From: a virus
Taxonomy: Duplodnaviria > Heunggongvirae > Uroviricota > Caudoviricetes
IMG/VR virus record: IMGVR_UViG_2778261161_000006
Span: 1-10,424 of that record
DNA: 10,424 nucleotides
Reading direction: 5' to 3' (one strand)
Position numbers and translations under genes: made by a program. Shown piece by piece: positions 1 to 10,424 of the stretch (position 1 is the stretch's first letter; each line of letters begins with the position of its first letter). The notes below the pieces were generated by a model. The model was not told where the DNA came from. It ran no database searches and saw only the letters and a list, made by a program, of their open reading frames with translations.

Positions 1-165
1 ATCTCTGTTGCCGGGATGCCTTCCAGTACAGGCCAGAAAGAGCCATCATCAAGCCCGAGATCGCGGCGTTCGGTTACCGTGGCATTTGAAGAGAAGTATG
101 GCTCCCAGCTGGAGCTGATATTTCGTTTTATCGATCGCGCACTGGCGATTGGTGTGCTGGCCTGA
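1..165 (+). CDS. 3' end of an unidentified ORF upstream of Q (partial; start lies outside the window)
   Basis: Frame 1 is open from position 1 to a TGA at 163-165, ending 17 nt before the Q start. The translation (…[30 protein letters not shown]) matches nothing I recognise. Supported only by the open frame and position. Confidence 0.25.
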
Positions 166-182
166 TTTTGTGGAGAAAGTTA

Positions 183-566
183 ATGCGTGATATTCAGATG
201 GTTCTTGAACGTTGGGGAGCGTGGGCGGCTAATAATCATGAAGATGTGACCTGGTCGTCCATTGCCGCCGGTTTTAAGGGATTAATTCCTTCAAAAGTAA
301 AATCTCGCCCGCAATGTTGTGACGATGACGCGATGATTATTTGCGGGTGCATGGCCCGTCTGAAAAAGAACAACAGCGATTTGCACGATTTATTAGTAGA
401 TTATTATGTAGTCGGTATGACATTCATGTCACTGGCAGGTAAGCATTGCTGCTCTGATGGTTATATCGGGAAAAGGTTACAGAAGGCTGAGGGCATAATT
501 GAAGGGATGTTAATGGCATTAGATATCCGGTTAGAGATGGATATCGTTGTTAATAACTCTAATTAA
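183..566 (+). CDS. quuD: Late-gene antitermination protein Q (127 aa)
   Basis: ATG at 183 preceded by GGAG at 171-174. Cys-rich putative zinc-binding region (…[18 protein letters not shown]…GKHCCSDGY…). Sits immediately upstream of hairpin terminators and the lysis cassette. Matches my recollection of the DLP12 Q-like protein. Confidence 0.8.
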
Positions 567-599
567 TATGCCAATTGTTTACTGAAAGTTATTAAAAAT

Positions 600-618
600 G
601 GGGCGTTGCAACGCCCCC
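600..618 (-). terminator. GC-rich perfect palindrome GGGGCGTTGCAACGCCCC; candidate intrinsic terminator for the antisense porin transcript (possibly bidirectional)
   Basis: 18-nt perfect palindrome at 600-617. On the minus strand it is followed by ATTTTTAATAAC (complement of 585-599). It lies about 140 nt downstream of the nmpC stop on the minus strand. Confidence 0.4.
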
Positions 619-683
619 AAAAATAAAGGGTAATATATAACAGAAGGTTTATATAGTTAGAAGCAAGGTTGTGCTCCTAAAGG

Positions 684-747
684 AAGTGGCTTGAGGGAGC
701 CACTTATATGTTGGGGAGGCAACGCCTCCCGCAACATATCTTTTTCG
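684..747 (+). terminator. Tandem hairpins downstream of Q; the second is a strong intrinsic terminator (candidate tR' of the Q-controlled late transcript)
   Basis: Hairpin 1: AAGTGGCT (684-691) / AGCCACTT (698-705), loop TGAGGG. Hairpin 2: ATATGTTGGGGAGGC (706-720) / GCCTCCCGCAACATAT (724-739), about 15 bp with a one-nt bulge, followed by C and TTTTT (741-745). The position is analogous to lambda pR'-tR'. Confidence 0.5.
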
Positions 748-755
748 TAATCAGA

Positions 756-1853
756 TTAGAACTGGTAAACCAGACCTACAGCAACGATGTCATCAGTGCT
801 TACACCGAGTGCTTTAGTGAAGTCATTTTTGTCAAGCAGGTTGATTTTGTAATCAACGAAAGTAGACATATTTTTGTTGAAGTAATAGGTTGCACCTACA
901 TCAACATATTTGACTAAGTCCTGATCGCCCCATACTCCAAGATCCTTACCTTTAGATTGCAGGTAAGCAACGGACGGACGCAGACCGAAATCGAACTGAT
1001 ATTGTGCAACAGCTTCGAAGTTTTGAGCTTTATTAGCAACGAAGTGATCAGCAAATACAGTCATATTCTGGGTTTCAGAATAGGTAGTGGCCAGGTAAAT
1101 GTTGTTAGCGTCATATTTCAGACCTGCGGCCCAAACTTCTGCATTTTTACCGGAAGCAAATACTTCAGGAAGAACTTTCCCTGCATTAACTTGAGTGTCG
1201 GTACGATCAGATTTCGCATAAGTTGCACCGATACCGAATCCTTCGTATTCATAGGTAGCAGAGAAACCGAAGCCATCACCGTTACCTTCGGTGTAGTTAT
1301 CGAAATCGCTACGATCGTTTTTGCCTTGGTACTGAGCAGCAAAGTTCAGACCATCAACCAGACCAAAGAAGTCGTTGTTACGATAGGTTGCAACACCAGT
1401 GGTGCGACCAGTCATGAACACATCTGTTTGGGTCCAGGTATCGCCACCGAATTCTGGCAGAACGTCAGTCCACGCACCGATGTCGTATGCTACACCGTAG
1501 TTACGGCCGTAATCGATTGAGCCGTAGTCACCGAATTTCAGGCCTGCAAATGCAAGACGGGTTTTGTCTTTGGAGGAACCTTGAGATTCAGCGCGGTTGC
1601 CTTTGAATTCATATTCCCACTGACCGAAACCAGTCAGCTGATCGTTGATTTGGGTTTCGCCTTTGAAGCCCAGACGAACATAAGTAGTATCACCATCATC
1701 TGCATCGTTAGAGGAAAAGTAGTGCTTGGCATTAACTTTCCCGTACAGATCCAGCTTGTTACTGTCTTTATTATAAATTTCAGCTGCCTGAGCAGACATC
1801 GCCATCAGTACTGATGCAGCTACAGCAGAAATTGCCACTGTTAATTTTTTCAT
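756..1853 (-). CDS. nmpC: Outer-membrane general porin, OmpC/OmpF family (NmpC / phage Lc-type), intact 365 aa
   Basis: N-terminal signal peptide [23 protein letters not shown]|AEIYNKD. Porin-like Gly/Tyr/Asp-rich beta-strand pattern and C-terminal YQF with terminal Phe, typical of outer-membrane beta-barrels. Uninterrupted ORF; no IS sequence inside. Confidence 0.92.
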
Positions 1854-2441
1854 CGTGAGCCCTTTTTTTTGAACTATTATTAAAAAATGATGTCACTGCG
1901 CGATAAATATTCATCTAATCAATGTGATTATTTCAAGATGTAAGTTTTAGTTTCTCATTTAATTTGTGAAGTAGATCTCTATTTTTATCTGAACTTTTTC
2001 TATCGAAACCTATTTATGGCTCTTATTTGAACAAAAATAAATCTATTAGCTAATTTATATTAATGGCTGTTATTTATGGTGGTTCTATAATTCGTCTGTT
2101 TAATTTAAACCGGCTAAAAATAACACTGGAAATTATTTATTGGTTATTTGTTGAGGTTTTCTTATGTATTTGTGGTGATGTTTTGAACACTCGGTAGCAT
2201 TCTCATAAATATCATTCAGTGGTTTACGTACGTAAAAAATTGGTTATGCTGTTAAGAGTGGTTACTTCGTCACACAGCTTAAACCCGCCGTCGAGCTGGT
2301 TTTTCCATTTTTTGAGTCTCGATATTAGCTGATAACTCAATACCTGAGTTATTCACTGACTCGGAGTCAGTTACGTTTCTGCTTTTTTGCGATACGTTGT
2401 ATTCCCTCAATTTACACCCGCTTTGTCTGCGAGGTGGGGTT
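1854..2441. promoter_or_regulatory. AT-rich intergenic region of about 590 bp holding the divergent nmpC promoter/leader and the lysis-cassette upstream region; contains repeated TATTTATGG-type motifs and a 14-bp palindrome
   Basis: Visibly AT-rich. Direct repeats ATGGCTCTTATTT (2016-2028) and ATGGCTGTTATTT (2063-2075). TATTTATGG at 2011 and 2071, and TATTTATTGG near 2134. Perfect palindrome TTTACGTACGTAAA at 2223-2236. Confidence 0.4.
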
Positions 2442-2657
2442 ATGAAATTCATGGATAAGTTAACAACTGGAGTCGCCTATGGCACCTCAGCAGGTAGTGC
2501 CGGTTACTGGTTTTTACAGCTGCTCGATAAAGTCACTCCCTCACAGTGGGCAGCAATAGGTGTGCTGGGTAGCCTGGTATTTGGCCTGCTGACGTACCTG
2601 ACAAACCTTTATTTCAAGATTAAAGAAGATAAGCGCAAGGCTGCGAGAGGTGAATAA
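2442..2657 (+). CDS. essD: Class II holin / pinholin with dual-start motif (phage 21 S-like), 71 aa
   Basis: RBS GAGGTGGGG upstream of ATG 2442. N-terminus MKFMDK has two in-frame Met codons (holin/antiholin dual start). Two hydrophobic segments and a charged C-terminus ([13 protein letters not shown]). Stop overlaps the endolysin start (TAATG). Closely resembles phage 21 S as I recall it. Confidence 0.9.
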
Positions 2658-3154
2658 TGCCTCCATCATTACGAAAAGCCGTTGCTGCTGCTATTGGTGG
2701 CGGAGCAATTGCTATAGCATCAGTGTTAATCACTGGCCCAAGTGGTAACGATGGTCTGGAAGGTGTCAGCTACATACCATACAAAGATATTGTTGGTGTA
2801 TGGACTGTATGTCACGGACACACCGGAAAAGACATCATGCTCGGTAAAACGTATACCAAAGCAGAATGCAAAGCACTCTTGAATAAAGACCTTGCCACTG
2901 TCGCCAGACAAATTAACCCGTATATCAAAGTCGATATACCGGAAACAACGCGCGGCGCTCTTTACTCATTCGTTTACAATGTGGGTGCTGGCAATTTTAG
3001 AACATCGACGCTTCTTCGCAAAATAAACCAGGGCGATATCAAAGGCGCATGTGATCAGCTGCGTCGCTGGACATACGCTGGCGGTAAGCAATGGAAAGGC
3101 CTGATGACTCGTCGTGAGATTGAGCGTGAAGTCTGTTTGTGGGGGCAACAGTGA
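2657..3154 (+). CDS. rrrD: SAR (signal-anchor-release) endolysin, T4-lysozyme-like muramidase, 165 aa
   Basis: N-terminal Gly/Ala-rich hydrophobic segment [20 protein letters not shown] (SAR domain). Catalytic E35, D44, T50 in [16 protein letters not shown]. Start overlaps the holin stop. Typical phage 21 R-type. Confidence 0.92.
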
Positions 3155-3612
3155 GCAGAGTAACCGCGATTATATCCGCTCTGATTATCTGCATCATCGT
3201 CAGCCTGTCATGGGCGGTCAATCATTACCGTGATAACGCAATCGCCTACAAAGCCCAGCGCGACAAAAATGCCAGAGAACTGAAGCTAGCGAACGCGGCA
3301 ATTACTGACATGCAGATGCGTCAGCGTGATGTTGCTGCGCTCGATGCAAAATACACGAAGGAGTTAGCTGATGCGAAAGCTGAAAATGATGCTCTGCGTG
3401 ATGATGTTGCCGCTGGTCGTCGTCGGTTGCACATCAAAGCAGTCTGTCAGTCAGTGCGTGAAGCCACCACGGCCTCCGGCGTGGATAATGCAGCCTCCCC
3501 CCGACTGGCAGACACCGCTGAACGGGATTATTTCACCCTCAGAGAGAGGCTGATCACTATGCAAAAACAACTGGAAGGAACCCAGAAGTATATTAATGAG
3601 CAGTGCAGATAG
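3151..3612 (+). CDS. rzpD: Inner-membrane spanin Rz (i-spanin), lambda-type
   Basis: Protein from [13 protein letters not shown]… is near-identical to lambda Rz as I recall it (N-terminal TMD, coiled-coil periplasmic domain). Likely GTG start at 3151 overlapping the endolysin stop (GTGA), preceded by GGGGG; an alternative GTG at 3139 is possible. Confidence 0.85.
3371..3553 (+). CDS. rzoD: Outer-membrane lipoprotein spanin Rz1 (o-spanin), embedded in the +1 frame of Rz, 60 aa
   Basis: [20 protein letters not shown]… has lipobox LVVVGC and a proline-rich mature region ([16 protein letters not shown]). Fully nested within Rz. Near-identical to lambda Rz1 as recalled. Confidence 0.85.
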
Positions 3613-3643
3613 AGCTGACCATATCGATGGGCAACTCATGCAA

Positions 3644-3937
3644 TTATTTTGAGCAATACACACGCGCTTCCAGCGGAGTATAAATGCCTAAAGTAATAAA
3701 ACCGAGCAATCCATTTACGAATGTTTGCTGGGTTTCTGTTTTAACAACATTTTCTGCGCCGCCACAAATTTTGGCTGCATCGACAGTTTTCTTCTGCCCA
3801 ATTCCAGAAACGAAGAAATGATGGGTGATGGTTTCCTTTGGTGCTACTGCTGTCTGTTTGTTTTGAACAGTAAACGTCTGTTGAGCACATCCTGTAATAA
3901 GCAGGGCCAGCGCAGTAGCGAGTAGCATTTTTTTCAT
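3644..3937 (-). CDS. borD: Bor outer-membrane lipoprotein (serum-resistance, Iss family), 97 aa
   Basis: MKKMLLATALALLITGC… has lipobox LITGC. Same length and near-identical sequence to lambda Bor as recalled. Antisense to the lysis genes, as in lambda. Confidence 0.92.
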   Translation of the reverse strand: MKKMLLATALALLITGCAQQTFTVQNKQTAVAPKETITHHFFVSGIGQKKTVDAAKICGGAENVVKTETQQTFVNGLLGFITLGIYTPLEARVYCSK

Positions 3938-4227
3938 GGTGTTATTCCCGATGCTTTTTGAAGTTCGCAGAATCGTATGTGTAGAAAATTAAACAAACCC
4001 TAAACAATGAGTTGAAATTTCATATTGTTAATATTTATTAATGTATGTCAGGTGCGATGAATCGTCATTGTATTCCCGGATTAACTATGTCCACAGCCCT
4101 GACGGGGAACTTCTCTGCGGGAGTGTCCGGGAATAATTAAAAACGATGCACACAGGGTTTAGCGCGTACACGTATTGCATTATGCCAACGCCCCGGTGCT
4201 GACACGGAAGAAACCGGACGTTATGAT

Positions 4228-4638
4228 TTAGCGTGGAAAGATTTGTGTAGTGTTCTGAATGCTCTCAGTAAATAGTAATGAATTATCAAAGGTATAGTAA
4301 TATCTTTTATGTTCGTGGATATTTGTAACCCATCGGAAAACTCCTGCTTTAGCAAGATTTTCCCTGTATTGCTGAAATGTGATTTCTCTTGATTTCAACC
4401 TATCAAAGGACGTTTCTATAAGATGCGTATTTCTTGAGAATTTAACATTTACAACCTTTTTAAGTCCTTTTATTAACACAGTGTTATCGTTTTCTAACAC
4501 AATGTGAATATTATCTGTGGCTAGATAGTAAATATAATGTGAGACATTGTGACGTTTTAGTTCAGAATAAAACAATTCACAGTTTAAATCTTTTCGCACT
4601 TGATCGAATATTTCTTTAAAAATGGCAACCTGAGCCAT
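4228..4638 (-). CDS. ybcV: Hypothetical protein YbcV (DUF1398-type), 136 aa; AT-rich cargo gene
   Basis: ORF open to 4761 (177 aa), but the internal ATG at 4638 is preceded by GGAAGG about 9 nt upstream and gives the 136-aa form I recall for K-12 YbcV. Strongly AT-rich compared with the flanking lambda-like DNA. Confidence 0.7.
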
Positions 4639-4923
4639 TGGTAAAACCTTCCATGTGATACGAGGGCGCGTAGTTTGCATTATCGTTTTTATCGTTTCAA
4701 TCTGGTCTGACCTCTTTGTGTTTTGTTGATGATTTATGTCAAATATTAGGAATGTTTTCAATTAATAGTATTGGTTGTGTAACAAAGTGCGGTCCTGCTG
4801 GCATTCTGGAGGGAAATACAACCGACAGATGTATGTAAGGCCAACGTGCTCAAATCTTCATACAGAAAGATTTGAAGTAATATTTTAACCGCTAGATGAA
4901 GAGCAAGCGCATGGAGCGACAAA

Positions 4924-5130
4924 ATGAATAAAGAACAATCTGCTGATGATCCCTCCGTGGATCTGATTCGTGTAAAAAATATGCTTAATAGCACCATTTC
5001 TATGAGTTACCCTGATGTTGTAATTGCATGTATAGAACATAAGGTGTCTCTGGAAGCATTCAGGGCAATTGAGGCAGCGTTGGTGAAGCACGATAATAAT
5101 ATGAAGGATTATTCCCTGGTGGTTGACTGA
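4924..5130 (+). CDS. ybcW: Small hypothetical protein YbcW, 68 aa
   Basis: ATG at 4924 preceded by GGAG (4911-4914). 68-aa ORF in the position and of the length I recall for DLP12 ybcW. Divergent from ybcV. No recognisable domain. Confidence 0.6.
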
Positions 5131-5294
5131 TCACCATAACTGCTAATCATTCAAACTACTTAACCTGTGACAGAGCCAACACGCAGTCTGTCACTGTCAG
5201 GAAAGTGGTAAAACTGCAACTCAATTACTGCAATGCCCTCGTAATTAAGTGAATTTACAATATCGTCCTGTTCGGAGGGAAGAACGCGGGATGT

Positions 5295-5489
5295 TCATTC
5301 TTCATCACTTTTAATTGATGTATATGCTCTCTTTTCTGACGTTAGCCTCCGACGGCAGGCTTCAATGACCCAGGCTGAGAAATTCCCGGACCCTTTTTGA
5401 TCAAGAGCGATGTTAATTTGTTCAATCATTTGGTTAGGAAAGCGGATGTTGCGGGTTGTTGTTCTGCGGGTTCTGTTCTTCGTTGACAT
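5295..5489 (-). CDS. ylcI: Small basic protein with predicted ribbon-helix-helix fold (YlcI-like), 64 aa
   Basis: Basic N-terminal tail (KNRTRRTTTR) followed by a beta-strand/helix/helix pattern NIRFPNQMIEQINIALDQKGSGNFSAWVIEACRRRL, typical of Arc/MetJ/CopG regulators. Lies in DNA that matches the lambda right end as I recall it. Confidence 0.55.
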   Translation of the reverse strand: MSTKNRTRRTTTRNIRFPNQMIEQINIALDQKGSGNFSAWVIEACRRRLTSEKRAYTSIKSDEE

Positions 5490-5688
5490 GAGGTTGCCCC
5501 GTATTCAGTGTCGCTGATTTGTATTGTCTGAAGTTGTTTTTACGTTAAGTTGATGCGGATCAATTAATACGATACCTGCGTCATAATTGATTATTTGACG
5601 TGGTTTGATGGCGTAGATGCACGTTGTGACATGTAGATGATAATTATTATCATTTTGCGGGTCCTTTCCGGCGATCCGACAGGTTACG

Positions 5689-5700
5689 GGGCGGCGACCT
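5689..5700 (+). other. cosN: lambda cohesive-end sequence GGGCGGCGACCT (terminase nicking site)
   Basis: Exact 12-nt lambda cohesive-end sequence, flanked on both sides by sequence matching the lambda genome termini as I recall them (…CCGACAGGTTACG | GGGCGGCGACCTCGCGGGTTTTCGCTATTTATGAAAATTTTCCGG…). Confidence 0.9.
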
Positions 5701-5739
5701 CGCGGGTTTTCGCTATTTATGAAAATTTTCCGGTTTAAG

Positions 5740-5856
5740 GCATTTCCGTTCTTCTTCGTCGTAACTTAATGTTTTTATTTAAAATACCCCCTGAAAAGAA
5801 AGGAAACGACAGGTGCTGAAAACGAGCTTTTGGGCCTCTGTCGTTTCCTTTCTCTG
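5740..5856 (+). promoter_or_regulatory. cosB: terminase small-subunit binding region (R3, IHF site I1, R2, R1)
   Basis: R3-like CATTTCCGTTCTTCTTCG (5741-5758). AT-rich I1-like stretch (about 5768-5786). R2 GAAAGGAAACGACAGG (5798-5813) and R1 CTGTCGTTTCCTTTC (5838-5852) form a 15-nt inverted repeat. Positioned between cosN and the Nu1 start, as in lambda. Confidence 0.75.
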
Positions 5857-5877
5857 TTTTTGGCCGTGGAATGAACA

Positions 5878-6423
5878 ATGGAAGTCAACAAAAAGCAGCT
5901 GGCTGACATTTTCGGTGCGAGTATCCGTACCATTCAGAACTGGCAGGAACAGGGAATGCCCGTTCTGCGAGGCGGTGGCAAGGGTAATGAGGTGCTTTAT
6001 GACTCTGCCGCCGTTATAAGATGGTATGCCGAAAGGGATGCTGAAATTGAGAACGAAAAGCTGCGCCGGGAAGTTGAAGAACTGCGGCAGGCCAGCGAGA
6101 CAGATCTCCAGCCAGGGACTATTGAGTACGAACGCCATCGACTTACGCGTGCGCAGGCCGACGCACAGGAGTTGAAAAATGCCAGAGACTCCGCTGAAGT
6201 GGTGGAAACCGCATTCTGTACTTTCGTGCTGTCGCGGATCGCAGGTGAAATTGCCAGTATTCTCGACGGGATCCCCCTGTCGGTGCAGCGGCGTTTTCCG
6301 GAACTGGAAAACCGACATGTTGATTTCCTGAAACGGGATATCATCAAAGCCATGAACAAAGCAGCCGCGCTGGATGAACTGATACCGGGGTTGCTGAGTG
6401 AATATATCGAACAGTCAGGTTAA
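5878..6423 (+). CDS. nohD: Terminase small subunit Nu1, 181 aa
   Basis: MEVNKKQLADIFGASIRTIQNWQEQGMPVLRGGGKGNEV… (winged helix-turn-helix N-terminus) is near-identical to lambda Nu1 as recalled. 3' end overlaps the A start, as in lambda. Confidence 0.93.
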   Translation: MEVNKKQLADIFGASIRTIQNWQEQGMPVLRGGGKGNEVLYDSAAVIRWYAERDAEIENEKLRREVEELRQASETDLQPGTIEYERHRLTRAQADAQELKNARDSAEVVETAFCTFVLSRIAGEIASILDGIPLSVQRRFPELENRHVDFLKRDIIKAMNKAAALDELIPGLLSEYIEQSG

Positions 6424-7501
6424 CAGGCTGCGGCATTTTGTCCGCGCCGGGCTTCGCTCACTGTTCAGGCCGGAGCCACAGACCGCCGTTGAATGGGCGG
6501 ATGCTAATTACTATCTCCCGAAAGAATCCGCATACCAGGAAGGGCGCTGGGAAACACTGCCCTTTCAGCGGGCCATCATGAATGCGATGGGCAGCGACTA
6601 CATCCGTGAGGTGAATGTGGTGAAGTCTGCCCGTGTCGGTTATTCCAAAATGCTGCTGGGTGTTTATGCCTACTTTATAGAGCATAAGCAGCGCAACACA
6701 CTTATCTGGTTGCCGACGGATGGTGATGCCGAGAACTTTATGAAAACCCACGTTGAGCCGACCATCCGCGATATTCCGTCGCTGCTGGCGCTGGCTCCGT
6801 GGTATGGCAAAAAGCACCGGGATAACACGCTCACTATGAAGCGTTTTTCCAATGGTCGTGGCTTCTGGTGCCTGGGCGGTAAAGCGGCAAAAAACTACCG
6901 TGAAAAGTCGGTGGATGTGGCGGGTTATGATGAACTTGCTGCCTTTGATGAGGATATTGAACAGGAAGGCTCTCCGACGTTCCTTGGCGACAAACGTATT
7001 GAAGGCTCGGTCTGGCCAAAGTCCATCCGTGGCTCCACGCCCAAAGTGAGAGGCACCTGCCAGATTGAGCGTGCAGCCAGTGAATCCCCGCATTTTATGC
7101 GTTTTCATGTTGCCTGCCCGCACTGCGGGGAGGAGCAGTATCTTAAATTTGGCGACAAAGAGACGCCGTTTGGCCTCAAATGGACGCCGGATGACCCCTC
7201 CAGCGTGTTTTATCTCTGCGAGCATAATGCCTGCGTCATCCGCCAGCAGGAGCTGGACTTTACTGATGCCCGTTATATCTGCGAAAAGACCGGGATCTGG
7301 ACCCGTGATGGCATTCTCTGGTTTTCGTCATCCGGTGTGACCGTGGAAACGGCCCGCCGCATTCTGGCAGCTGCACCACAGAGTGCACAGGCGCGCAGTG
7401 ACACTGCGCTGGATCGTCTGATGCAGGGGGCACCGGCACCGCTGGCTGCAGGTAACCCGGCATCTGATGCCGTTAACGATTTGCTGAACACACCAGTGTA
7501 A
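6398..7501 (+). pseudogene. A: Truncated terminase large subunit A (N-terminal ~313 aa) fused to ~54 codons from the 3' end of the gene preceding D (C/Nu3 region); deletion remnant
   Basis: MNISNSQVNRLRHFVRAGLRSLF… through …GILWFSSSG matches lambda gpA N-terminal half as recalled. Lambda A is about 641 aa, whereas this ORF is 367 aa. After the junction near 7336 the sequence (VTVETARRILAAAPQ…NDLLNTPV) is not gpA and runs straight into the D RBS. Confidence 0.85.
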
Positions 7502-7510
7502 GGGATGTTT

Positions 7511-7843
7511 ATGACGAGCAAAGAAACCTTTACCCATTACCAGCCGCTGGGCAACAGTGACCCGGCACATACGGCAACCGCGCCCGGCGGATTGAGTGCG
7601 AAAGCGCCTACAATGACCCCGCTGATGCTGGACACCTCCACCCGTAAGCTGGTTGTGTGGGATGGCACCACCGACGGTGCTGCCGTTGGCATTCTGGCGG
7701 TTGCTGCTGACCAGACCAGCACCACGCTGACGTTCTACAAGTCCGGCACGTTCCGTTATGAGGATGTGCTCTGGCCGGAGGCTGCCAGCGACGAGACGAA
7801 AAAGCGGACCGCGTTTGCCGGAACGGCAATCAGCATCGTTTAA
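7511..7843 (+). CDS. D: Head decoration protein D, intact, 110 aa
   Basis: [27 protein letters not shown]…TAISIV is near-identical to lambda gpD as recalled. RBS AAGGGA 5 nt upstream of ATG 7511. Confidence 0.92.
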
Positions 7844-7860
7844 CCTTACCCTTCATCACT

Positions 7861-7887
7861 AAAGGCCGCCTGTGCGGCTTTTTTTAC
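7861..7887 (+). terminator. Hairpin plus T-tract in the D-E intergenic region (intrinsic terminator/attenuator-like)
   Basis: AAAGGCCGCCTGTGCGGCTTTTTTT: GCCGC/GCGGC stem with flanking A/T pairing, followed by 7 T. Confidence 0.5.
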
Positions 7888-7898
7888 GGGATTTTTTT

Positions 7899-8405
7899 AT
7901 GTCGATGTACACAACCGCCCAGCTGCTGGCGGCAAATGAGAAGAAATTTAAGTTTGATCCGCTGTTTCTGCGTCTCTTTTTCCGTGAGAGCTATCCCTTC
8001 ACCACGGAGAAAGTCTATCTCTCACAAATTCCGGGACTGGTAAACATGGCGCTGTACGTTTCGCCGATTGTTTCCGGTGAGGTTATCCGCTCCCGTGGCG
8101 GCTCCACCTCTGAATTTACACCGGGATATGTCAAGCCGAAGCATGAGGTGAATCCGCAGATGACCCTGCGTCGCCTGCCGGATGAAGATCCACAGAATCT
8201 GGCGGACCCGGCTTACCGCCGCCGTCGCATCATCCTGCAGAACATGCGAGACGAAGAGCTGGCCATTGCTCAGGTCGAAGAGATGCAGGCCGTTTCTGCC
8301 GTGCTTAAGGGCAAATATACCATGACCGGTGAAGCCTTCGATCCGGTTGAAGTGGATAGAGGTCTTTTTAGAAGAAGGTCTCTCCGTTACTGCACCTGCT
8401 TCTGA
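7899..8405 (+). pseudogene. E: Truncated major capsid protein E (first ~153 codons of 341) followed by 15 out-of-context codons and a stop; deletion remnant
   Basis: MSMYTTAQLLAANEKKFKFDPLFLRLFFRESYPFTTEKVYLSQIPGLVNMALYV…EAFDPVEVD matches the lambda gpE N-terminus as recalled, then diverges at 8358 ([15 protein letters not shown]). Confidence 0.88.
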
Positions 8406-9840
8406 TTATATTGTTGCTGAAACGACTTATAAATTTGGCGCAACTGATCCTTATTCTGAATCAGTTGCGGTAAATTTAATTTTAGATTTTAAACAAGGTA
8501 ATGGATTTTATAGTTCGTATCCTGTTTTGAGTAAGTCAGACATTAGCGGGAATAAGATTTACGCTAATGATGAAGTTATTGTCCGTAGTCAGAACGCGTT
8601 AAGGATGATTGCAGGTGATTACGGTGTCATATGGCGAAATGATGGAGCAAATACTTACTTGCTCATGACTGATAAAGGCGACCAGTACGGTGGCTGGAAC
8701 GGTCTTCGACCATTTGCAGTAAATAACGCAACAGGTGAAGTGACGATCAATACATCACTTAATTCTCCTAAGGGGATTAAGGGAAATTCTGATACAGCTA
8801 CGAAACTTCAGACAGCAATAAAAATATCTGGTGTTTCGTTTGATGGTTCTACTGATATCACTTTAACCGCTGCGCATGTTGCTGCTTTTGCCAGAAGAGC
8901 AACGGATACGTATGCCGATGCGGATGGGGGCGTTCCCTGGAATGCCGAATCAGGCGCTTACAATGTCACTCGCTCTGGCGACAGCTATATTCTGGTTAAC
9001 TTCTATACCGGAGTCGGAAGTTGCCGGACCTTGCAGATGAAGGCGCATTACAGAAATGGTGGTCTGTTCTACCGTTCTTCAAGAGACGGTTATGGTTTTG
9101 AGGATGACTGGGCAGAAGTTTATACCTCGAAAAATCTTCCACCAGAAAGCTACCCAGTCGGCGCACCAATCCCGTGGCCATCAGATACCGTTCCGTCTGG
9201 TTATGCCCTGATGCAGGGGCAGACTTTTGACAAATCTGCCTACCCGAAACTTGCAGTCGCTTATCCGTCAGGCGTGATCCCTGATATGCGTGGCTGGACG
9301 ATTAAGGGCAAGCCCGCCAGTGGTCGTGCCGTATTGTCTCAGGAACAGGACGGCATTAAATCGCACACTCACAGCGCCAGCGCATCCAGTACGGATTTGG
9401 GTACGAAAACCACATCGTCGTTTGATTACGGCACTAAATCCACGAATAACACCGGGGCGCATACGCACAGTCTGAGCGGCTCTACAAGCTCGGCCGGAGC
9501 ACACTCGCACGTTGATGGTCGCAGGTTTAATACAAGCACTTTTAAAGACACCTATCAGTATGGTTCTACAGCTGTCGGAAGTAACTCATACCAGGTACAA
9601 GGGGCGGTTGGTCTGGGCATTGGCACGATGGCGAATACGAACTCTGCTGGCGCGCATACCCACTCACTGTCCGGCACTGCTGCAAGCGCAGGTGCACACG
9701 CACATACTGTCGGTATTGGTGCTCATACGCACTCCGTTGCGATTGGCTCACATGGACACACCATCACCGTTAACGCTGCTGGTAACGCGGAAAACACCGT
9801 CAAAAACATCGCATTTAACTATATTGTGAGGCTTGCATAA
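8359..9840 (+). pseudogene. stf: 5'-truncated side tail fibre gene (stf-like): non-lambda AT-rich central domain plus lambda Stf / T4 gp37-like C-terminal His-box domain
   Basis: Continuous frame from the junction to the stop, with no credible start of its own (the GTG at 8329 lies inside the E remnant in another frame). C-terminal ~230 aa ([71 protein letters not shown]…[11 protein letters not shown]) match lambda Stf as recalled. Confidence 0.8.
9361..9770 (+). repeat. Internal repeated His-box (HxH) motifs of the tail-fibre distal domain
   Basis: Repeated GAHTHSLSG(S/T)…AGAH(S/A)[18 protein letters not shown] and [11 protein letters not shown] segments within the stf-like ORF. Confidence 0.6.
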
Positions 9841-10424
9841 TGGCATTCAGAATGAGTGAACAAGCACGGACCATAAAAATTTATAATCTGCTGGCCGGAA
9901 CTAATGAATTTATTGGTGAAGGTGATGCATATATTCCGCCTCATACAGGTCTGCCAGCAAACAGTACCGATATTGCACCACCAGATATTCCTGCTGGCTT
10001 TGTGGCTGTTTTCAACAGTGATGAGGCATCGTGGCATCTCGTTGAAGACCATCGGGGTAAAACGGTTTATGACGTAGCGTCAGGGGACGCGTTATTTATT
10101 TCTGAACTCGGTCCGTTACCGGAAAATGTTACCTGGTTATCGCCGGAAGGGGAGTTTCAGAAGTGGAACGGCACAGCCTGGGTGAAAGATGCAGAAGCAG
10201 AAAAACTGTTCCGGATCCGGGAGGCGGAAGAAACAAAAAACAGCCTGATGCAGGTAGCCAGTGAGCATATTGCGCCACTTCAGGATGCTGTAGATCTGGA
10301 AATCGCAACGGAGGAAGAAACCTCATTGCTGGAAGCCTGGAAAAAGTATCGGGTGTTGCTGAACCGTGTTGATACATCAACTGCACCTGATATTGAGTGG
10401 CCTACGAACCCTGTCAGGGAGTAA
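9840..10424 (+). CDS. tfa: Tail fibre assembly protein Tfa, intact, 194 aa
   Basis: [54 protein letters not shown]… is near-identical to lambda Tfa as recalled. Start overlaps the stf stop (TAATG). Stop at 10422-10424. Confidence 0.9.

Follow-up and report, generated by a model that had tools for sequence, protein, structure and literature searches.

A lambda-type cos site and its probable role in a DLP12-type cryptic prophage remnant of Escherichia coli

RESULTS

Gene content and identity of the element

We analyzed a stretch of 10,424 nucleotides (the window), positions 1 to 10,424 of IMG/VR virus record IMGVR_UViG_2778261161_000006. The window is 100% identical to positions 3 to 10426 of contig NTPM01000041.1 of assembly GCA_002463805.1, a draft genome that may carry other prophages elsewhere. 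To the left of a cos site lies a late-region module, with genes assigned by Pfam on an identical contig (L010):

183-5489, late-region module left of cos, in the K-12 DLP12 order quuD-nmpC-essD-rrrD-rzpD-borD-ybcV-ybcW-ylcI-nohD
183-566, Q antiterminator
756-1853, minus strand, porin
2442-2657, holin
2657-3154, lysozyme
3151-3612, Rz
3644-3937, minus strand, bor
4228-4638, minus strand, ybcV
4924-5130, ybcW
5295-5489, minus strand, ylcI

The element extends past the window on both sides. Its left end carries an integrase and an excisionase that adjoin fimZ (positions 1465 to 2855 of contig L008, outside the window), followed by three small gene fragments, Q, the porin, the holin-lysozyme-Rz genes, bor, ybcV, ybcW, and ylcI. 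To the right of cos are Nu1, a fusion of the A and C genes, D, a remnant of E, a tail-fiber remnant, tfa, and a methyltransferase, and beyond the methyltransferase lie a second tfa fragment, a hydrolase, and then the chromosomal genes ompT-envY-ybcH-nfrA. Contig NTPM01000041.1 aligns with K-12 positions 573920 to 588816 in four collinear blocks of 97.8 to 98.7% identity that include ompT-envY-ybcH-nfrA. This collinearity with the K-12 DLP12 prophage and its right flank identifies the element, by sequence and gene order, as an allele of the cryptic prophage DLP12 from an E. coli other than K-12.

The element shares with K-12 DLP12 (qsr') its locus and the order quuD, porin, essD, rrrD, rzpD, bor, ybcV, ybcW, ylcI, cos, nohD, truncated A, tfa, and ompT. 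The two are about 98% identical in DNA as a whole, and their 281-bp cos segments are 96.8% identical. The tfa gene is collinear with K-12 tfaD from about window position 9986 onward. However, more of the late region survives in the window (A up to codon 313, the end of C, all of D, a portion of E, and the tail-fiber remnant), whereas in K-12 an A gene of about 100 codons is joined directly to tfaD. The porin gene is uninterrupted, unlike the IS5-interrupted gene of K-12 DLP12, and the early region is more deleted than in K-12, so that int and xis almost adjoin Q. The exact configuration of the window was absent from the complete E. coli genomes examined, where the best matches were intact prophages or differently deleted remnants.

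Sub-sites of the cos region

We mapped the cos sub-sites by aligning window positions 5389 to 6500 base by base with the joined ends of lambda (NC_001416):

5659-5665, plus strand, cosQ heptamer GGGTCCT, the termination signal (role according to PMC4669245), identical to lambda 48473-48479
5687-5702, plus strand, cosN nicking site CGGGGCGGCGACCTCG (12 nucleotides with 2-bp flanks), identical to lambda
5706-5738, plus strand, I2 bent-DNA segment (lambda bp 18 to 50), identical to lambda, with the critical bp 30 to 35 at 5718-5723
5738-5753, plus strand, cosB R3, the critical TerS binding site (lambda bp 50 to 65), with one substitution, G54A, at 5742
5754-5796, plus strand, I1 region, the IHF bending site between R3 and R2, with two changes relative to lambda
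5797-5812, minus strand, cosB R2, inverted, AGAAAGGAAACGACAG, identical to lambda 109-124
5838-5853, plus strand, cosB R1, an accessory TerS site, CTGTCGTTTCCTTTCT, identical to lambda 151-166

The site lies between the lysis/bor module and Nu1, the usual position in lambdoid prophages. The 12-nucleotide cohesive-end sequence GGGCGGCGACCT is on the plus strand at 5689 to 5700 and is the sole match in the window even when one mismatch is allowed (0.03 expected by chance, from shuffles). The sub-sites have the same order, orientation, and spacing as in lambda, and cosQ, cosN, I2, R2, and R1 are identical; over 282 bp, the window differs from lambda by 15 substitutions, including G54A, and one 1-bp deletion. 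The spacer between cosQ and cosN is 23 bp, as in lambda, with a single change, T48486C, at 5672. Lambda bp 1 to 53 correspond to window positions 5689 to 5741 with no differences, and the spacing from cosN to R3 is unchanged. The I2 segment, at bp 18 to 50 between cosN and R3, is known to be important for this site (PMC4856287).

Within cosB, the window has AGGCATTTCCGTTCTT at R3 where lambda has AGGCGTTTCCGTTCTT, a match at 15 of 16 positions, and the change is G54A rather than the C53T of K-12 DLP12. The two changes in the I1 region, A73G (5761) and T102C (5790), are both outside the best match to the IHF consensus between R3 and R2, which is on the bottom strand at 5767 to 5779 with one mismatch. 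The spacer between R2 and R1 has two substitutions and a 1-bp deletion, which makes it 1 bp shorter than in lambda. The R sequences are of the lambda type and stand in the cosB order R3-I1-R2-R1 with R2 inverted. The features of a lambda-specificity cos are present in the window: cosN, the distance to cosQ, I2 and its spacing, cosB, and an adjacent TerS gene. Judged by this alignment, positions 5659 to 5853 constitute a full lambda-type cos in the order cosQ-cosN-I2-R3-I1-R2-R1. A preliminary description of this DNA had called cosN (5689 to 5700) and the cosB elements apparently intact, and the alignment bears this out for every cos sub-site, apart from the natural R3 polymorphism G54A.

We considered whether the site could instead be a decayed look-alike in which G54A, the I1-flanking changes, the 1-bp deletion between R2 and R1, and T48486C abolish recognition by terminase. 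G54 is part of the CGTTTCC core conserved among R3, R2, and R1 of lambda, R3 is the most critical of the R sites, and the geometry of cosN and cosB is sensitive to small changes (PMC9026076). Because G54A changes a base of the core common to R3, R2, and R1, it may cause some loss of affinity for lambda's own TerS. However, bp 1 to 53 and the spacing from cosN to R3 match lambda exactly, TerS contacts bp 55 to 63 of R3 with bp 54 just outside (PMC9026076), and the R3 positions at which mutation harms packaging are 56, 58, and 59 (PMC9026076, PMC4669245). R1 and its spacing are accessory.

Relatives of the cos region

Comparison with related phages and prophages also argues against decay. The deposited phage PhiR42_1 and the prophage of strain JNEC-KY175, which appears to be complete, both match the 246 bp at 5635 to 5880 with 100% identity, and identity over the cos segment is 99.3% for PhiR34_1, 97.9% for phage 2H10, 96.8% for K-12 DLP12, and 94.3% for lambda. 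A literature search on the phage names found no paper describing the PhiR phages. The R3 position apart, the differences from lambda between cosQ and R1 are common to all five relatives aligned, which makes lambda the outlier in this core.

We surveyed IMG/VR for the R3 allele and found at least 120 contigs with an exact cosN-to-R3 match. Among the 120 matches listed, bp 53 and 54 of R3 were CG, as in lambda, in 69, TG, as in K-12 DLP12, in 28, CA, as in the window, in 22, and TA in 1. Among these same listed matches, 14 of the CA contigs were identical to the window from cosQ to R1 and 8 had a full-length terminase A gene. With these relatives in hand, we regard a decayed look-alike as very improbable. 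Since a deposited phage and prophages that appear complete have the identical cos, it is plausible that a lambda-specificity terminase supplied in trans would cut it and initiate packaging; we infer this function from identity with presumably viable genomes.

We also compared the window with the JNEC-KY175 prophage over a longer distance. Window positions 71 to 7337 are 99.945% identical to it over 7.3 kb and positions 7332 to 8358 are 98.9% identical, with 3.9 kb missing between the two blocks.

Small terminase subunit and loss of the morphogenetic genes

The genes to the right of cos in the window are as follows:

5878-6423, plus strand, Nu1 (nohD), the small terminase subunit, 181 amino acids, intact (Pfam PF07471)
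6398-7501, plus strand, truncated large terminase, an in-frame fusion of gpA residues 1 to 313 with the last ~54 codons of the protease/scaffold gene C
7511-7843, plus strand, head decoration gene D, 110 amino acids, intact (Pfam PF02924 on identical contig L010), 98.9% DNA identity to the JNEC-KY175 prophage
7899-8405, plus strand, remnant of major capsid gene E (Pfam PF03864), 168 amino acids instead of ~341
8347-9840, plus strand, side tail-fiber remnant joined to the E remnant (Pfam Gp34_trimer, Collar, and Phage_fiber at 8349-9842 of contig L010)
9840-10424, plus strand, tail-fiber assembly gene tfa (Pfam Caudo_TAP)

Nu1 is identical to lambda Nu1 at 178 of 181 residues, and the gene is intact, as the preliminary description had said. 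Residues 1 to 47, the DNA-binding domain, are identical to lambda, and this includes the recognition helix (residues 17 to 24) and the wing (residues 31 to 39) as defined in PMC9026076. The same protein sequence is found for Nu1 in PhiR42_1 and in the JNEC-KY175 prophage, and for NohA in strain W5-6.

The large terminase gene did not survive in the same state. The gpA match to lambda (312 of 317 residues identical) ends at residue 313, and the junction with C is at 7337/7338, over a 5-bp microhomology. Relative to the intact JNEC-KY175 prophage, this is a 3.9-kb deletion that took out W, the portal gene B, and most of C, and it leaves a gpA remnant that lacks the C-terminal half with its endonuclease and prohead-binding functions. 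The homology of E and its match to the JNEC-KY175 prophage end at about position 8358. No tail-shaft genes were found anywhere in the element in the gene lists of contigs L008 and L010. The preliminary description, which had the large terminase, portal, protease, capsid, and tail genes deleted or truncated, was therefore right about the losses but needs refinement in that D is intact and gpA persists as part of a fusion protein. With the nuclease and prohead-binding half of gpA missing, and with neither portal nor capsid, the resident element is predicted to be unable to use its own cos.

In sibling strains and in 42 complete genomes, a satellite-like island of about 11 kb is inserted in the major capsid gene E. 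The corresponding site in E is empty in the window.

The deletion junction between A and C found no match among the one-genome-per-species contigs scanned. Exact copies of the 367-amino-acid fusion protein are encoded by 10 or more contigs, among them those of five E. coli draft assemblies at NCBI and of several SRA assemblies. This recurrence is one reason to ask whether the remnant is kept to interfere with other phages, with cos, NohD, and the gpA(1-313)::C fusion titrating or poisoning the terminase of a helper. The fusion is an uninterrupted in-frame open reading frame downstream of an intact Nu1, it keeps the N-terminal third of gpA (which holds the Nu1-binding region) without the nuclease and prohead-binding parts, and loss of the gpA C terminus is known to prevent docking at the portal (PMC4856287). 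Expression and a phenotype of the fusion are purely hypothetical, however, and lambda grows normally on K-12, which carries the related DLP12 remnant, and recombines freely with it (PMC3945230). That the element is almost identical to an intact prophage also argues that the deletion was recent and accidental and not the product of selection. We consider such an interference role extremely improbable.

Possible packaging of the DNA to the right of cos

Initiation of packaging needs cosN and cosB, termination needs cosQ and cosN, and packaging runs rightward from the Nu1 side (PMC4669245). The direction through Nu1 given in the preliminary description agrees with this. That description had gone on to suggest that a superinfecting phage with lambda-specificity terminase could start packaging at this chromosomal cos and mobilize the adjacent tail-fiber cassette and host genes in the manner of cos-dependent satellites. 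The first part of this proposal is plausible, since all initiation sub-sites are present with correct spacing, but the satellite-like mobilization does not follow.

There are several reasons to take such a packaging origin seriously. The initiation signals are complete and are the same as those of a deposited phage, and helper terminase does package DNA from repressed chromosomal prophages, although this standard assay, the Feiss assay, requires two tandem cos sites (PMC4669245). N15 terminase also packages lambda DNA. Immature particles that protect DNA from unexcised lambda-type prophages are also on record (cited in PMC8008629). Moreover, E. coli genomes have a median of 2 and up to 8 cos places each, which makes a resident helper plausible.

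We looked for a second cosQ-cosN that could serve for termination. None was present in the 11.8 kb available to the right of cos on the window's own contig. Beyond that distance we used the orthologous K-12 locus as a proxy, and a search allowing at most one mismatch in cosQ and at most three in cosN found no composite of the two in 59 kb downstream. Uncut protruding DNA prevents tail attachment (PMC6687093), so that a head filled from this site is not expected to become a phage.

One cosN-like 12-mer, GGGCAGCGACCA, was found at K-12 position 621341, with two mismatches and at a packageable distance 40.7 kb downstream of the DLP12 cos. It was the only plus-strand 12-mer with two or fewer mismatches in the K-12 downstream search. 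We do not take it for a termination site, since neither cosQ nor any cos-like context accompanies it and since about 5 such two-mismatch matches are expected by chance, by our own estimate over 68 kb.

The gene content of the element was compared with that of phage satellites. The element has predicted integrase and excision genes of its own, outside the window. Pfam and PHROGs searches of contigs L008 and L010 found no replication, repressor, immunity, or helper-sensing genes between int and tfa. At the gene level, there is no autonomous replication module that would give concatemers, the only regulator present is the Q antiterminator rather than a helper-responsive master repressor, and there are no functions for packaging redirection or capsid remodeling (Rpp, a distinct TerS or cosB, or Sid- or Psu-like proteins). 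Because the element lacks replication, repressor, and packaging-redirection genes, neither amplification nor a concatemer is expected. The site is of the cos type and not one for headful termination, which lateral transduction uses and for which a single packaging site suffices; pac phages are stated to carry out lateral transduction and cos phages not to do so (PMC12829572).

Published particle sequencing points indirectly in the same direction. Particles were purified from a K-12 lambda lysogen after induction, and the K-12 lineage normally has the DLP12 and Qin cos sites. Host reads came "almost exclusively" from the lambda attachment site and about 25 kb on each side (PMC7667829), in a study that did not single out DLP12. 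A result of this type is what the preliminary description had named as speaking against its proposal. Our literature search found nothing specific that combined DLP12 with particle coverage. Taken with the single cos, the lack of a second site in the DNA searched, and the absence of replication, immunity, and helper-sensing genes, these observations make productive rightward transfer of the tail-fiber cassette and host genes from this cos improbable, and the comparison to cos-dependent satellites is not supported.

Lambda lysogens that are defective in excision are reported to show raised transduction of prophage-proximal markers when lysis is delayed. From this classical work, some low-level transfer from a chromosomal cos is conceivable. 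During growth of a lambda-specificity phage, a single cos in a nonreplicating remnant might give measurable locus-specific transfer of 40 to 50 kb to the right (ompT, cus, and ent), for example if nucleases trimmed the protruding DNA of heads filled from one cos and tails could then join. We see only a slim prospect of this. Were it to occur, cos phages would have their own equivalent of lateral transduction, starting from cryptic prophages present in most E. coli, and this would contradict the statement on cos phages in PMC12829572.

DISCUSSION

A passively kept cos as a probable substrate for recombination

The element very probably carries a genuine lambda-specificity cos in a DLP12 allele, kept passively and available as a substrate for recombination and rescue rather than as a mobilization device. 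The cos would have been retained after the loss of the head and tail genes simply because both deletions begin to its right. It would also have had little time to decay, since its flanks and a complete prophage still share 99.9% identity.

When a lambda-specificity phage such as lambda grows lytically, its terminase, together with IHF, would most likely bind to cosB and introduce nicks at cosN. After nicking, terminase would guard the Nu1-side end and leave the cosQ-side end open to nucleases and recombination, as terminase is known to shield the cosB end while nucleases attack the cosQ end (PMC4856287). With the cosQ-side end exposed, the locus would be a hot spot for swapping the Q-porin-lysis-bor-cos-Nu1 region with an infecting phage, and such a hot spot of exchange at the cos region is documented for K-12 DLP12 (PMC3945230). 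Rightward translocation from the Nu1 side would enter host DNA and meet no second cosQ-cosN. The final cut could then not be made, and the products would be dead-end, tailless "one-cos" heads and not transducing phage, an outcome that follows from established lambda biology. The likeliest outcomes are therefore a break made by terminase, which would favor recombination with phages entering the cell, together with dead-end filled heads.

Comparison with known systems

The cos of lambda is a close model for the site itself, but the cos in the window differs from it in being chromosomal and single copy, with no working terminase alongside. A remnant of the Qin type in strain W5-6 has a 231-bp cos and a Nu1 protein that are 100% identical to those of the window, and it likewise has a shortened terminase gene, followed by tfaQ. 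Qin differs in its chromosomal site and in its left-hand module, which carries cold-shock genes and rrrQ.

The expected behavior of the element resembles that of one-cos ("doc") particles and of the helper packaging of tandem passive prophages, where a trans-acting terminase begins at a chromosomal cos and proceeds to the right into the neighboring DNA (PMC4669245). One-cos particles of excision-defective lambda go back to Sternberg and Weisberg in 1975, as cited in PMC8008629 and PMC10287942. In those systems, however, either the prophage is replicated in place or the DNA offers a second cos. The element in the window has neither, so only the abortive branch of the process is expected. The phage-inducible chromosomal islands of E. 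coli (PICIs; EcCICFT073, with Rpp) resemble the element in having a lambda-like cosQ and cosN and in relying on helper capsids and terminase (PMC6739421, PMC9026076). PICIs excise, replicate, and use Rpp to redirect TerS to a cosB of different sequence, whereas the element carries neither a replication module nor Rpp, its cosB is of the helper's own type, and its TerS is an ordinary Nu1. Satellites excise and replicate into concatemers, which gives two cos sites per unit; the element has a single cos.

Prior knowledge, meaning, and frequency

Lambda qsr' substitution phages carry the DLP12 cos region, and around 1980 Fisher and Feiss reportedly found that the qsr' (DLP12) prophage can rescue a lambda cos mutant. 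Poteete's group pointed out that lambda can recombine with the cos patch of DLP12 (PMC545071). De Paepe et al. reported 98% identity between lambda and K-12 DLP12 over 3,353 bp covering R, Rz, cos, nu1, and A, and found that 10 of 19 junctions of lambda × DLP12 recombinants adjoin cos (PMC3945230). Recombinants with R, Rz, or nu1 of DLP12 were viable, which means that DLP12 nu1 is functional in lambda, and the likely cutting of the DLP12 cos during lambda growth was already discussed there (PMC3945230). The cos-noh region of DLP12 and Qin is therefore an already known feature, and the idea put forward in the preliminary description is likewise not new. What the window holds is a familiar feature, correctly read, and not a new system.

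The practical value of the finding is for annotation and for understanding phage mosaicism. Were a remnant cos also to seed the transfer of neighboring host genes, chromosomal gene flow in E. coli would have a route beyond those already known. The requirement for a second cos, the failure to find a second site or a replication function in the DNA searched, and the published particle sequencing argue against such gene flow. A cos of the DLP12 or Qin type, present in most E. coli, would serve infecting lambdoid phages as a substrate for terminase cutting, and these phages may thereby acquire or repair a Q-lysis-bor-cos-Nu1 module, as already shown for K-12.

We determined how common the site is in complete E. 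coli genomes. The 231-bp cos segment matched 4,591 of 5,426 genomes (85%), and in 3,984 of these the match covered at least 80% of the query. Among the IMG/VR matches listed, 16 of the 68 contigs that could be judged had a truncated A gene beside an exact cos. Together with the Qin-type copy of W5-6, this shows that an intact cos next to a broken terminase gene is a common state of lambdoid remnants.

An island in the capsid gene

The window carries a remnant of the major capsid gene E. In sibling contigs whose sequence agrees fully (100% identity) with window 1-8143, a satellite-like island of ~11.1 kb is inserted within this remnant. In STEC711, the same ~11.1-kb island interrupts gene E of a lambda-like prophage that is otherwise complete. 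The 10 bp at window 8134-8143 are common to both island junctions and are probably the att core.

Island positions
Sibling contig L009, 11747-21104: satellite-like island
STEC711 (L017, NZ_CP041416), 14348-25469: satellite-like island
Window, 8134-8143: empty island site

The genes of the island include those for a tyrosine integrase, an AlpA-type regulator, an Icd-like protein, a D5-type primase and SSB. The island also specifies its own lambda-E-type capsid protein and gpD-type decoration protein, an Abi protein and a small terminase of the Nu1 family. Among 5,426 complete E. coli genomes, 42 contain ≥80% of the island. A satellite that is aimed at the capsid gene of its likely helper while carrying a capsid gene of its own merits separate study.

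The cos site of the island

The island has its own cos, immediately upstream of its small terminase gene.

Island cos
L009, 20541-20610: cos of the island

Its cosQ (GGGTCCT) is the same as that of lambda and lies at the lambda spacing, and the sequence after cosN is lambda-like over bp 13-35. The island cosN, GGGCGTCAGGCG, differs from that of lambda at bp 6-12, and the island cos has no lambda-type R3. In the sibling strains, the DLP12-type cos and the island cos share one orientation, with the island cos 11.26 kb downstream, so that two cos-type sites flank one short segment. At 11.26 kb, this segment falls far short of what a lambda-sized head takes.

Terminase genes and R3 alleles beside cos

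In the window, a 3.9-kb deletion created an in-frame, uninterrupted gpA::C fusion (6398-7501), with 5 bp of microhomology at the junction (7337/7338). The fusion joins the N-terminal half of gpA (residues 1-313), which lacks the nuclease and prohead-binding parts, to the last ~54 residues of the protease/scaffold protein C. An identical predicted 367-amino-acid product occurs on at least 10 contigs.

At least 120 IMG/VR contigs match lambda exactly from cosN to R3 (L018-L137). Among the 120 matches listed, R3 bp 53-54 are CG in 69, TG in 28, CA (the window type) in 22 and TA in 1. The large terminase gene is truncated beside the exact cos in about a quarter of the judgeable contigs among these matches (16/68).

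Accessory genes of the DLP12 allele

The DLP12 porin gene (nmpC-type, 365 amino acids) is intact at window 756-1853 on the minus strand, whereas in K-12 it is broken by IS5. The deposited phage PhiR34_1 has an OmpD-annotated porin at the equivalent position.

Region to the right of the window
L010 (identical to the window), 10481-13179, also on L008: region right of tfa

Here the methyltransferase gene is intact, while its K-12 counterpart is the pseudogene ybcY, and a 494-amino-acid alpha/beta-hydrolase gene takes the place of K-12 appY.
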